Shown here piece by piece: positions 3,001 to 6,000 of a DNA stretch of 49,485 nucleotides. The DNA comes from Armatimonadota bacterium (GTDB lineage: Bacteria > Armatimonadota > SYMT01). Position numbers: made by a program. Location of the stretch: contig JBKBRF010000051.1 in NCBI GenBank assembly GCA_046292385.1, forward strand, positions 1 through 49,485. The letters are read 5' to 3'. Each line of letters begins with the position of its first letter. Position 1 is the first letter of the stretch.

Positions 3001-6000
3001 GTCGGTGGAGTAAAGAAGGCGGGTCGTGTCGTCGAACCGCGCCCGGTCTCCCAGCGGGGCTGAGAGGGCGGTCCGCAGCGCGCTGGTTTGATTCGAATCC
3101 AGGGCAGCGAAGCTCATCGGAACGGGTTCTCTACCACCGCCATCGTTTCCTGGGCAGGGAGGTTGCCTGCCCCGCAAGGGCTTTGCAACGAAAGTAGTAG
3201 CCGCGGCCCCCTAAAGGTCGGTGTGAAGTTTTCCATAATACCGGGTGAACGGCTTGGCGAGTCGATAATGGCAAACCAGTCGAAAGGCTGGGACGCAAAG
3301 CTGAGAGCCTAAGCCGAAGCACCACCGGCGGGAGAGGGAGAGAACACGCACGCAGTACCCGCGGCTCTCGAGTCGCACGCCCGGAGGTGTTCGGGATGGC
3401 AGTCTGGTTGCCGTACTCTGCACTGAGCGGGACCGAGCATTCAAACCAGAGAAACATCTTGTTTCGCCCCTGGGTAGGTGCTGGGTAACTTGGGATAGGT
3501 ATAGGAGACCTCTCAGATGCAGATATCGACCCACGAGGTATACCGGGTCAGGGAAGCGGCCTCACGCCGGAAGGATGAGCGAGCGCAGGCACCGATCAGC
3601 ACGGTCGCCGATCTCGCCGCCCAGCAGGGTGTGAGCATGGATGAGGTGCGGCGCTTCACGGAGCGGGCCATGATGTCCGAGGAAGACCCGCTTCGGGAGC
3701 GGCGGGTCCGGGAGCTGGCCCGGCGCATCGCCGAGGGCAACTACCGGATCGACTCCGAGGATCTGGTGGATATGGCGGAGCGCCGCGCGATCGCGGACCG
3801 CTCCGGTCAGCTCTAGATCTTCCGCGACTGGTGAAGAACCGGGGAGCGCGCTCGTCGCGCTCCCCTTTTTCGCGTACCTCTACGGCAGCGATCCCCCGGG
3901 AGAGCCCGGAAGCTCCCCCATCTGGAGGCTTTCCGGCGCGGGCGCGGCGGGCTGCGGCAGCAGGCTGGGCGGGGTGAGGGGCCCGGACGGCCGTCGCGGA
4001 CCGGCAAGCTGGTGCCGCTTCGCCTCGAACTGGTCCGGCCGGTGGTAGATCAGCATCAGGTTGGTCAGGCCGCGGCTGGGACGGGCGATGTAGCGCCCGG
4101 CGAAGTACATCGCCGTGGAGGAGCCGCCGTCGAGCGCCACCGCGTGGTAGGCGCCGATCGCCCGCATCACCTTCGCCAGCTCGTAGAGCGTGATCCCCTG
4201 CCGCACCGCGACGAACTGCAGGTGGTTGTCGCGCGTGAGGCCGACCGCCGTCCGCGTGCGCCGCTGGGAGATCGGGAGCGACTTGAACCCTTCCTTCCGC
4301 GCCGCCACGCAGAGGCTGCCGGAATCGACCAGCCGCGGCCCCCCGCGAATCACCGTCTCGTACATGCTCCAGTCGACCGACTGGTCCTTGTAACGCGTGG
4401 TGATGAACGAGGCGACGTTCCCCTCCGTGATCGCGACCGCGGTCCCGATGAAGCCGCGGAAGACCGGCCGGCCGTTGATGACCAGGTCGCCGGTCGGAAT
4501 GTGGTTCTTCACGCCGAAGAAGGTGCCGGTGATCGCGGCGGCGGGCCGGGCGCGCGCGACCATCTGCCCGAAGCGCTCGGAGGTGCCGATCCCATGCCTC
4601 GACACCATGGCGGCGATCTTGACGTTCGGATCGGAGAGGTCGGCCTCGATGACGTGGACCCCGACGTTCAGCACGAACCCCTTGCGGTAGTAGACGCCGG
4701 TGCCCTGCTTCTCGATATGGAAGAGCCCCTGCACCAGGCTCGCGTTGAGCGGAGGGAGCTTGCGGGAGCTCTTGGGCGCCGGCTGCTTCCGCTTCTGCAG
4801 GCGCTTCTCGGTCTCTGTCGGCGGCGGTGCCGGGGAGGCGGCGATCTGCTCGGGCAGCTTCCCGGGAGAGTCGAGCACCGGATCCGCCGGCTCCTGGGCG
4901 CCGACCCCTGCCGCGGCCAGGGCGAGTCCGAGTACTCCGAGTCGATAGATCATTCCAAGCTCTCCGGGGATGCCGGGCCGCGCGGTCCGTACTCCACCGC
5001 CAGCCACCCCGCATCCCACCGCGCCGACCGCATCTGCCGCCGCACCACCGCGCCCGGCAGCGGGATCGTGCGCCGCTGGGTTCCGATGTGCAGCACCAGC
5101 CCGTCTTCCGCCGCCAGCACCCGCAGCTCGCCCTTGCGCACGAACGGCAGGCGGATGCGCAGCGTGGCGCGGCTCTCCGTCTCGTCCCACTGGATCGGCG
5201 GCGCCTCGCACCAGAGCCCCGCCGCATCCCGCTCGCCGTAAAGCTCCGCGCCAAAGCGTTCGAGCGCTTCGATCCCAATCAGTTCCTCGGCGTGCAGCCC
5301 CCCGGTGAGCAGCGGGAGCCCTGCGAATTCCTCCCGGGCGCTCTGGAGGAGAGCAGCCTGCCGCTCATACCACGGGGCGAGAGGCGAGGGGTAGTCTGCC
5401 GGTGGTAGGAGCTTGTTTACCACCACCGCGTCGAGATTCATTCCTAAAAGACTCGTCCAGCTTACCGCCCGGCGAGTCTCCGCCAGGCTCACCCGGTCCG
5501 CGGTGGTTACCAGCCGCACTGAGGCGTGCGCCGTATCCATCAGCGTCCGGCTCGCCTGGCCCACCCGCGCGTACCAGTACTCCATCTCCGCCATCGCCTC
5601 GCCGGTCGGCACCGGCCAGCCGAGCGCGTCCGCCACCGGCCGCATCCGCTGCAGCATCCCGCGCTCCAGCGGGTGGTACTTCTCCATGAACCAGCGCAGG
5701 ACGTCCGGCAGCCGCAGGAACTTGAGCAGGTCCCCCGTCGGCGGCGCGTCGAGCACCACCACGTCGAACCGGCCCTCCTCCGCCACCGACTGCAGCCGCA
5801 TCAGGCCGAAGACCTCCTCCATCCCGGGCAGGACCGCGCACTCCTCCGCCACCAGTGCGGAGACCTCCGGGTTGTTCGCCGTCATCGTGCGGAAGAAATC
5901 GATCACCGCGCTCCAGTTGTCGGAGAGCTCCCGGTTGATGTTGACCTCCAGCCCGTGGAGGCTCGTGGAGATCGGCGTGGGGGTGTGGCCGAGCGGGAGG

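Follow-up and report, generated by a model that had tools for sequence, protein, structure and literature searches.

A predicted c-di-GMP-I riboswitch in the leader of a FlgM-family gene of an Armatimonadota bacterium without detectable flagellar genes

Three known bacterial systems come close to the one described here. In Clostridioides difficile, the c-di-GMP-I riboswitch Cd1 lies ahead of flgB, in an early flagellar operon that encodes SigD, and works as an OFF switch. The FliA–FlgM checkpoint of Salmonella and Bacillus, represented structurally by the Aquifex entries 1rp3 and 1sc5, combines a FliA-type sigma factor with a small FlgM that has a conserved C-terminal half, and flgM itself is under a sigma-28 promoter (autoregulation). 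So far, control of a sigma-28-family factor by c-di-GMP through its anti-sigma factor is known as a protein-level arrangement in Actinomycetota, where the anti-sigma factor is RsiG, high c-di-GMP turns the sigma factor off, and the c-di-GMP-binding motif of RsiG is E(X)3S(X)2R(X)3Q(X)3D (PMC8325347).

The locus described here lies on a 49,485-nt contig (the window) of an Armatimonadota genome, G000 (7.04 Mb, 98.45% completeness), and compares with each of these systems. As with RsiG/WhiG, a sigma-28-family factor would be held by an anti-sigma factor under c-di-GMP control, type IV pilus genes and c-di-GMP enzymes are among the predicted targets, and an ON riboswitch would give the same sign; in both cases, the other sigma clade goes with the flagellar cluster and appears to stand outside c-di-GMP control (WhiG1 versus WhiG2 there, clade B versus clade A here). 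Unlike RsiG, the anti-sigma factor is of FlgM type and a regular-expression search of its 99 residues did not find the RsiG motif; c-di-GMP would act here on the mRNA leader and hence on the amount of anti-sigma factor, rather than by arming the protein. With Cd1, the locus shares the coupling of c-di-GMP to a sigma-28 regulon by a c-di-GMP-I riboswitch, whereas the present riboswitch would control the anti-sigma factor alone, is probably ON and persists without flagella. The small FlgM with its conserved C-terminal half, the FliA-type sigma factor and the sigma-28 promoter ahead of flgM, predicted in G000, recall the FliA–FlgM checkpoint. Unlike that checkpoint, G000 has no detectable export apparatus: searches with FHIPEP, Flg_bb_rod and Flagellin_N, the FlhA, rod and flagellin families, gave no match each in the genome, with positive controls in 4 of 14 genomes each, and 38 of 44 crude ORFs from the flagellar contig of G061 found no tblastn match in G000. 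Since FlgM would not be exported through a flagellar type III apparatus, release of the sigma factor must rest on synthesis, turnover or another signal, and the riboswitch would supply an input. Full-text literature searches turned up no description of a riboswitch placed directly ahead of flgM.

We lean towards reading positions 3211–3870 as a single-gene regulatory unit that runs from a sigma-28-type promoter through a c-di-GMP-I riboswitch and a FlgM-family gene to a terminator, and extend this somewhat more confident than doubtful view to the whole explanation developed below, including the ON sense, the clade A partner and the pilus regulon. The aptamer (RF01051) occupies positions 3260–3415 of the plus strand and comprises two hairpins, the first capped by a GAAA tetraloop and the second enlarged by a 73-nt insertion in its loop. 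It scores 70.4 bits (E 7.1e-12) with the Rfam covariance model, for which the gathering score is 35, and the alignment covers all 87 model positions (1–87), with the GAAA loop and all three conserved junction runs, GGCAAAC, GACGCAAAG and UGCCG, which we take to hold the ligand-contacting bases. No second RF01051 match was found when the whole genome was searched. The aptamer ends 101 nt ahead of the flgM ATG on the same strand and thus sits in the 5′ leader, which also contains the Shine–Dalgarno sequence AGGAG (3503–3507, plus strand) ahead of the start codon at 3517–3519; a start of the form M-[KQR]-I-S is kept in all 23 oriented riboswitch–flgM loci. A putative helix P1 closes the aptamer; its proposed 5′ strand (GCGAGUCG, 3257–3264, plus strand) makes standard base pairs with 3412–3421, and the extended duplex of 3242–3265 with 3411–3443 has a predicted energy of −18.9 kcal/mol. 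A candidate switching segment at 3411–3435 (plus strand) would contain the P1 3′ strand and could pair alternatively with the ribosome-binding and start region at 3503–3529. These data support a c-di-GMP-I riboswitch as the leader of the FlgM-family gene, with a response to the ligand predicted from sequence. Several statements of the genome-wide survey's note that had pointed to the locus held on reanalysis: this is the only c-di-GMP-I riboswitch of the genome, it lies ahead of a FlgM-type gene of 99 codons, a FliA/WhiG-family sigma factor is kept and flagellar genes are not detectable.

The gene itself (3517–3816, plus strand; 99 aa plus stop) is assigned to the FlgM family of anti-sigma-28 factors. 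Its score against Pfam FlgM (PF04316; 29.2 bits, residues 51–84) is just 4 bits over the cut-off of 25, and its 28.9 bits against TIGR03824 fall under the cut-off of that model, 40.75; riboswitch-linked FlgM orthologues score 29.5 to 56.7 bits. It is the sole FlgM match of the genome. Orthologues within the family of G000 share 49–58% identity, with M1, S4, R60, Y76, R89, R90, A93 and D94 invariant, and a profile of 20 orthologues aligned with two FlgM chains of known structure, 9wsf_B (E 4.7e-7) and 1rp3_B (E 8.5e-6), across the sigma-binding C-terminal half. An intrinsic terminator at 3841–3870 (plus strand), with a 10-bp G+C-rich stem (3841–3865) followed by a T-run, closes the single-gene unit, and the next gene, of the NAGPA family, lies on the minus strand (3880–5211). 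Aptamer and ORF are bridged by a 575-nt contig from metatranscriptome run X8 (3261–3836; eight mismatches, one gap), and portions of the unit also appear in shorter contigs from X14, X15 and X16; DNA carry-over is possible in these RNA libraries. Their contigs did not cover the flanks at 2400–3240 and 3912–4900, except for two short X16 pieces, and, as such contigs cannot show transcript ends, they give no evidence on boundaries. Short loose-ended pieces at 3262–3302 in the RNA libraries were rejected as aptamers from other organisms.

A sigma-28-type promoter is predicted at 3211–3238 (plus strand), with CTAAAG at 3211–3216, a 14-nt spacer and TTCCATAA at 3231–3238. It agrees with the consensus form, CTAAAG-N14/15-GCCGATAA-like, at 11 of 14 positions, and its 3′ end lies 21 nt ahead of the aptamer; transcription would start near 3245–3248. 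Taken alone, a match of this quality does not exceed chance expectation in G000: a genome-wide scan revealed no enrichment over a reversed-genome null at 11/14 (435 observed versus 641) or at 12/14 (30 versus 45), and matches of 13/14 and 14/14, the ones taken further, numbered four versus two. The support comes from the conserved position upstream of the aptamer; matches of at least 11/14 within 75 nt upstream were present at 20 of the 23 riboswitch–flgM loci versus 3 of 309 control windows. Sigma-28-type promoters also precede the three flgM genes of the family that have no riboswitch and, in flagellated relatives with the pairing, flagellin genes. A perfect motif upstream of a PAS-GGDEF-HD-GYP gene was dropped, as it is not conserved in the orthologues of G035 and G074. 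Because the flgM unit has a sigma-28-type promoter of its own, sigma and anti-sigma factor would form a negative feedback loop, the gain of which c-di-GMP would set through the riboswitch.

We then asked how widely the pairing is distributed, using 151 genomes of the phylum, 49 of which contain a FlgM-like match. In 33 of these 49 genomes, representing 12 families, the FlgM-like gene comes directly after a same-strand riboswitch that reaches the gathering score, a stronger recurrence than the survey had claimed. FlhA is present in 25 of the 33 and absent from eight. This answers whether relatives with the pairing are flagellated, a check that the survey had named, and contradicts the idea of a trait special to flagella-less genomes; it also identifies the pairing as an inherited motility circuit that the G000 lineage retained. 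We read the riboswitch–flgM module as an ancestral feature of the phylum, at work mostly in flagellated cells. Weak FlgM-like matches in G138, G130 and G029 had no riboswitch nearby, and the placement left out the weak riboswitches of three f10 genomes (G025, G119 and G137) as well as the weak FlgM-like matches of G121 and G123.

The lack of flagellar genes would also suit a rival view, in which the unit is decaying, has no present function and is left over from a flagellar regulon that was lost recently. The −10 element of the G000 flgM promoter departs from the consensus (TTCCATAA versus GCCGATAA), as a remnant might, and the riboswitch is still ahead of only three of the six FlgM genes in the family, having been lost ahead of the other three, where the c-di-GMP input is therefore dispensable. 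We consider decay very improbable, given that the flgM ORF is intact in six of seven family genomes from five genera, with invariant C-terminal residues, that the aptamers of G000, G005, G021 and G061 score 66–79 bits and that the clade A sigma factor is 72–81% identical within the family. FlhA (FHIPEP) is missing from all seven genomes of the family, which makes the loss old, the pairing also persists in three genomes of f13, another family without flagella, and RNA-library contigs cover the unit.

The FliA/WhiG sigma factor of G000 is encoded at C61:23754–24530 (minus strand), contains Sigma70_r2, r3 and r4 and reaches 240.7 bits with TIGR02479 (cut-off 189.6). The genome also carries a family-specific sigma duplicate (C11:9648–10409) and about 16 group-3-type sigma matches of >95 bits to the FliA/WhiG model. 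In a quick tree with SH-aLRT as its sole support measure, clade A (94) unites the C61 sigma with orthologues at 51–81% identity, and clade B (93) contains the sigma adjoining flhA. By this tree, the G000 sigma is a member of the widely conserved clade A and not an orthologue of the flhA-adjacent factor. Numbers of FlgM genes follow the same division: G061, G143 and G004, with clades A and B, have two each, while G104 and G128, with clade A only, have one each, namely the riboswitch-linked copy, so that FlgM copy number equals sigma-28 paralogue number in five of five genomes examined. The second FlgM of G061 (63.3 bits) is encoded between flgI and flgK. Judged from these gene contents, some flagellated relatives possess two sigma-28/FlgM pairs, the first in the flagellar cluster and the second under the riboswitch, and the G000 lineage is better read as having kept the second, riboswitch-controlled module upon loss of the flagellar one. 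The survey's proposal of a sigma factor re-used for a non-flagellar regulon thus needs division: a non-flagellar regulon agrees with the pilM promoter described below, whereas re-use gives way to retention of a clade A module. Among solved structures, the C61 sigma is closest to Streptomyces venezuelae WhiG (238.9 bits versus 166.5 for the best FliA); as the clade B sigma of G061 and the G000 duplicate are also closest to WhiG, we claim no orthology to WhiG2.

The FlgM-type protein would most likely bind the clade A sigma and perhaps also the C11 duplicate. Complex prediction for the 99-aa FlgM and the sigma gave ipSAE values of 0.58, 0.59 and 0.58 versus 0.00 for the best control, with a partner pLDDT of at least 69 and runs agreeing in at least 51% of contacts, and was graded as weak support; in the calibration, 116 of 157 solved pairs came up to the mark, as did 2 of 215 mismatches, and scores of ≤0.60 came from just 18 of the 157 solved pairs and both mismatches. 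A FliA–FlgM complex has already been solved and the pass may therefore reflect likeness only. This grade, the short and weak Pfam match, the many FliA/WhiG-like sigma matches in G000 and the families in which clade A sigmas occur with no FlgM-like match to this query (f29, where seven of seven genomes have clade A, and f8) would fit a protein that acts not on the clade A sigma but on the C11 duplicate, another group-3 sigma or a non-sigma partner. We judge such a partner rather improbable, since FlgM and sigma-28 paralogue counts agree in all five genomes, the flgM promoter is of sigma-28 type and the profile matches solved FlgM chains across the sigma-binding half. The clade A sigma would use the flgM and pilM promoters, and in G061, which has both pairs, pairing would be cognate, with the riboswitch-linked FlgM acting on clade A and the cluster-encoded FlgM on clade B.

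Upstream of pilM, a CTAAG-like element, a spacer of N14–15 and TGCC[G/A]ATAAT recur in six of six family genomes at varying distances to the start, with the G000 promoter at C3:142991. Because this sigma-28-type promoter is conserved throughout these members, a non-flagellar regulon is plausible. Outside the family, the motifs upstream of pilM are weak (10 to 12 of 14). The regulon in the G000 lineage most likely includes the pilus operon, with the gene order pilM-N-O-(unknown)-pilB-pilT, and the riboswitch–FlgM wiring probably helps control type IV pili in this flagella-less organism. The PilB encoded there contains MshEN, a domain that senses c-di-GMP and thereby activates pilus ATPases.

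We used folding to approach the ON or OFF sense. In the minimum-energy folds of G060, G034, G125, G004 and G061, the aptamer 5′ core GGCAAAC pairs with a GGGUUUGCC-like run that lies downstream and is followed by U's, indicating a terminator that ligand binding would exclude, an ON design. When the P1 3′ strand was withheld, the cost of opening the ribosome-binding site (RBS) dropped by 2.4 to 10 kcal/mol in four of seven leaders; G000, G021 and G117 showed no gain, with costs in G000 unchanged at 4.7 versus 4.9 kcal/mol. The G000 leader has no terminator between aptamer and gene, and its full-length thermodynamic folding misses the second hairpin of the Rfam model and reveals no clear RBS difference between states. 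Segment 3411–3435 and the RBS/start region form an RNAduplex of −23.5 kcal/mol, which ranks 1/14 against the RBS windows of other loci; after shuffling of the cognate RBS, 0.55% of copies gave an equally strong duplex, and so did 17.6% of random windows of this G+C-rich genome. Comparing cognate with non-cognate sites, this anti-RBS test favors G000, G021 and G117 (rank 1/14) and does not favor G005, G061, G075 or the f22, f6 and f10 leaders. Folding thus indicates an ON switch in relatives and does not discriminate ON from OFF in G000.

The same parts could be wired as an OFF switch, by which c-di-GMP would lower FlgM, free the sigma factor and raise the pilus genes together with c-di-GMP-activated PilB. 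The MshEN domain in the PilB of the candidate target operon would suit this wiring, as would the G000 leader, where enforcing aptamer and P1 does not open the RBS and leaves the AUG more paired (P unpaired of 0.08 versus 0.34 with P1 blocked), and the minimum-energy duplex in f10, which carries P1 onto the Shine–Dalgarno region. Conversely, the terminators of the five relatives use the aptamer 5′ core as an arm, the P1 3′ strand doubles as anti-RBS in f15, G005 and G075, and the protein-based analogue has the opposite sign, with sigma off at high c-di-GMP (PMC8325347). On balance, we regard OFF as unlikely, if a serious contender. The switch is most likely ON, such that c-di-GMP binding would permit flgM expression and high c-di-GMP would lower sigma activity.

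With the flagellar-cluster pair absent from the G000 lineage and the riboswitch-controlled pair retained, a broader reading suggests itself, which we put forward tentatively: a dedicated second sigma-28/anti-sigma-28 pair, gated by the riboswitch and closed into a feedback loop by its sigma-28 promoter, may control surface behavior without dependence on the flagellar FliA/FlgM, its targets being type IV pili and perhaps c-di-GMP enzymes. Such independence would explain why at least two lineages that lost their flagella still have it. Control of FlgM-type anti-sigma levels by a riboswitch would be a second, independent solution beside RsiG and, if true, would extend the c-di-GMP-I class to a gene that regulates another regulator. 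The natural variants, with terminator-type (such as G060 and G125), RBS-type (such as G081 and G005) and riboswitch-less leaders, offer material for comparing ON platforms. For these bacteria, the locus would provide a concrete account of how a flagellar-type sigma/anti-sigma pair outlasts flagella, through the keeping of a paralogous, pilus-targeting module.

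The riboswitch-flgM unit of the Armatimonadota genome under study (G000) begins with a c-di-GMP-I aptamer at 3260-3415 (+), which scored 70.4 bits over all 87 model positions in a cmscan of the window (RF01051 gathering score, 35 bits) and from which we infer ligand binding. Its first hairpin carries a GAAA cap and the loop of its second a 73-nt G+C-rich insertion (3318-3390). A comparable insertion is found in the aptamer of genome G021 (140 nt) and none in the 87-nt aptamer of G005 from the same genus. The aptamer is followed after 101 nt by a 99-codon ORF (3517-3816, +) with AGGAG at 3503-3507 (+) in front and a strong terminator at 3841-3865 (+) behind. 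This ORF matched Pfam FlgM with 29.2 bits (cut-off 25) and the NCBIfam FlgM equivalog with 28.9 bits, under its cut-off of 40.75. Because the neighboring genes are divergent (FAD-oxidase/Fe-S) and convergent (NAGPA family), the unit holds flgM as its single gene. Searches of the whole G000 assembly (7.04 Mb, 91 contigs, 68.9% G+C, 98.45% completeness) returned no other FlgM match and no second c-di-GMP-I copy; a single riboswitch of this class was also reported by the genome-wide survey's note. A tRNA gene (18797-18869, −; 72.7 bits) bears no relation to the unit. Among RNA libraries, a 575-nt contig of metatranscriptome run X8 spans 3261-3836 (eight mismatches, one gap), bridging aptamer and ORF, and two further studies (runs X14, X15 and X16) gave contigs within 3296-3697; starts, ends and strand are not readable from such contigs, and DNA carry-over is possible.

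The FliA/WhiG sigma factor and the lack of flagellar genes described earlier for this genome were both borne out. The sigma gene (contig C61:23754-24530) scored 240.7 bits (cut-off 189.6) and lies in non-flagellar surroundings, between peroxiredoxin-type and SurA-like PPIase genes. FHIPEP, Flg_bb_rod and Flagellin_N had 0 matches in G000, while each control was positive in 4 of 14 genomes.

Across the 151 genomes of the phylum common to all four phylum searches, 72 contained a c-di-GMP-I riboswitch, 82 FlhA and 49 a FlgM-like match to the window protein. Coordinate cross-referencing and Rfam scans of the FlgM loci placed a riboswitch that reaches the gathering score immediately upstream, on the same strand, in 33 of these 49. 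Four others had an aptamer match under the gathering score (G009, G101, G090 and G128), in four no upstream riboswitch was found (G074, G035, G048 and G091) and five had weak FlgM matches of doubtful meaning, which leaves G025, G119 and G137 without an upstream cross-check. The suggested recurrence of the pairing thus extends to 12 GTDB families (f1, to which G000 belongs, f2, f6, f7, f10, f12, f13, f15, f19, f22, f26 and f39). FlhA was present in 25 of the 33 paired genomes and absent from eight: G000, G005 and G021 (f1), G012, G026 and G040 (f13), G020 (f19) and G135 (f39). The pairing is therefore ancestral and occurs mostly in flagellated genomes. None of the seven genomes of G000's family had FlhA (completeness 69-98%). 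G061 (f2), the sole other sampled genome of the order, is flagellated; 38 of 44 crude ORFs on its 40-kb flagellar contig had no tblastn match in G000, some of these calls being opposite-strand shadows. As side observations, the flgM-linked aptamers of G004, G060, G128, G101 and G090 matched RF03167 (c-di-GMP-I-GGC) better than RF01051 or exclusively (30-61 bits), and their ligand specificity may differ. Several genomes carry two to three tandem c-di-GMP-I aptamers within 100-1000 nt (G011:C116:12661-12861, G074:C35:590-1584 and G120:C1:2550275-2550475), and some up to eight copies in all.

The sample was searched with the G000 sigma, and 51 sequences fell into three groups in a quickly built maximum-likelihood tree: two sigma-28 clades and a duplicate nested in one of them. 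Clade A (SH-aLRT 94) comprised the G000 sigma, its family orthologues (72-81% identity), a G061 copy (78%) and further copies from f6, f7, f10, f13, f15, f19, f22, f26 and f29. The nested duplicate is specific to the family, evolves fast and was found in all seven family genomes; the G000 copy (C11:9648-10409) scored 172 bits against TIGR02479, less than the cut-off. A sigma-28 motif (12/14) lies 576 nt upstream of this duplicate. Clade B (SH-aLRT 93) contained sigma factors encoded 2-5 kb from flhA in f2, f6, f8, f18, f19, f22, f25, f26, f28 and one f15 genome; it also included genes kept in G035 (C2:507820-508563) and G048 (C471:21633-22382), where FlhA was not found, as sisters to G061's copy. 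G035 and G048 are also among the three family genomes whose FlgM gene lost the riboswitch. The closest solved structure to the G000 sigma was S. venezuelae WhiG (238.9 bits versus 166.5 for FliA); since WhiG was likewise nearest to the G061 clade B sigma and the G000 duplicate, this is uninformative on orthology.

FlgM gene number tracked sigma-28 paralogue number in all five genomes searched: two where both clades coexist (G061, G143 and G004) and a single, riboswitch-linked one where clade A stands alone (G104 and G128). In G061, a canonical FlgM (63.3 bits) lies between flgI and flgK of the flagellar cluster. In the simplest reading of these sequences, the riboswitch-controlled FlgM would be the partner of the clade A sigma, and G000 would retain this module after loss of the flagellar one. 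The predicted G000 sigma-FlgM complex scored 0.58, 0.59 and 0.58 versus 0.00 for the best control, a verdict of 'weak support'. Of the 157 solved pairs used in calibration, 116 reached the mark, as did 2 of the 215 mismatches; just 18 of those solved pairs, but both mismatches, scored 0.60 or less. Solved FliA-FlgM complexes exist, so this pass may reflect no more than likeness to them. The earlier proposal of a c-di-GMP-set anti-sigma level for a re-used sigma was right at its core and needs correction in the pairing's ancestry, the sigma's best target and its module: judged by the tree, the retained sigma belongs to a second, paralogous one.

Oriented riboswitch-flgM loci carried a sigma-28-type promoter 13-34 nt upstream of the aptamer. 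Matches of at least 11/14 occurred in 20 of 23 loci versus 3 of 309 control windows from the same loci. The f15 promoter is a perfect CTAAAG-N15-GCCGATAA, two f10 genomes have CTAAAG-N14-GCCGATAA, and those of f6, f22, f7 and f2 differ from consensus by one or two changes; G000 has CTAAAG-N14-TTCCATAA (3211-3238, +) and G021 CTAAGG-N14-CTCCATAA. The promoter also precedes three family FlgM genes that have no riboswitch. Because it resembles motifs upstream of flagellin genes in flagellated relatives (for example, CCTAAAG-N15-ACCGATAA in G104), flgM here probably belongs, like its classical counterparts, to the sigma-28 regulon. Transcription from this promoter would join sigma and anti-sigma in a feedback loop.

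The flgM-linked leaders fell into three kinds. In terminator-type leaders (G060, G034, G125 (f22), G004 (f6) and G061 (f2)), the aptamer is trailed by a sequence such as GGGUUUGCC with 5-6 U's behind it, and the minimum-energy fold pairs this sequence with AAGGGCAAAC, the 5' core of the aptamer itself. Because ligand binding engages this core, terminator helix and bound aptamer are mutually exclusive, and the predicted design is therefore ON, with c-di-GMP binding permitting flgM expression. For RBS-type leaders (f15, G005 and G075), the RBS region paired best with the P1 3' strand, and withholding that strand lowered the RBS opening cost by 2.4 to 10 kcal/mol; as modeled, this is likewise an ON design. 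The third kind, for which folding favored neither sense, includes G000, G021 and G117. In G000, segment 3411-3435 has two possible partners, the 5' flank at −18.9 kcal/mol and the SD/start region (3503-3529) at −23.5 kcal/mol. The latter pairing ranked first of 14 against foreign RBS windows and was equaled by 0.55% of shuffles, but by 17.6% of random genomic windows; constrained folding of a bound-like state gave no RBS opening. From these models, ON is the likely sense of the module as a whole, and for G000 itself we infer it at about even odds or better.

Scanning G000 for CTAAAG-N14-16-GCCGATAA gave one 14/14 and three 13/14 matches (0 and 2 in the reversed-genome null), with no enrichment over that null at lower scores. 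The sole perfect motif, CTAAAG-N14-GCCGATAA, is followed after 174 nt by the gene for a 666-aa PAS-GGDEF-HD-GYP protein (C26:71633-73807), an arrangement that would feed back onto c-di-GMP; the motif was not conserved before the orthologues in G035 and G074. The 13/14 matches precede pilM, a subtilase gene and a CAP-domain gene. Among the high-scoring motifs, the pilM promoter was the one that passed a conservation test: a CTAAG-like element, N14-15 and TGCC[G/A]ATAAT recur upstream in all six family genomes with pilM, between ~70 and 215 nt before the start and within diverged surroundings. Motifs upstream of pilM outside the family were weak. The operon continues with pilN, pilO, a 240-aa gene and genes for a PilB-type ATPase (C3:146340-148055), with an N-terminal MshEN domain (75.9 bits), and a PilT-type ATPase.

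Among the matches listed by full-text literature searches, none described a riboswitch placed immediately before flgM; they dealt with the flgB leader of C. difficile or were reviews. For Rubrobacter, PMC8325347 describes a switch controlling type IV pili and 12 mapped WhiG promoters, three in the pilus cluster and five before DGC/PDE genes. PMC12871210 distinguishes WhiG1, which accompanies the flagellar cluster and which RsiG does not bind, from WhiG2, which is under RsiG and c-di-GMP control and has predicted regulons including type IV pili and c-di-GMP metabolism. The modules described here resemble those accounts in combining a cluster-linked pair with a second, c-di-GMP-linked one, and in the candidate pilus and c-di-GMP-enzyme targets. 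Unlike in RsiG systems, the anti-sigma is FlgM-type, the RsiG motif is absent from the 99-aa protein and the c-di-GMP input would be RNA-based.

Type IV pili are the best-supported target of the retained sigma, which would use the pilM promoter. MshEN is a c-di-GMP-binding domain; its presence in the PilB-type ATPase of this candidate sigma-28-driven operon therefore means that c-di-GMP may act on the pili at two levels.
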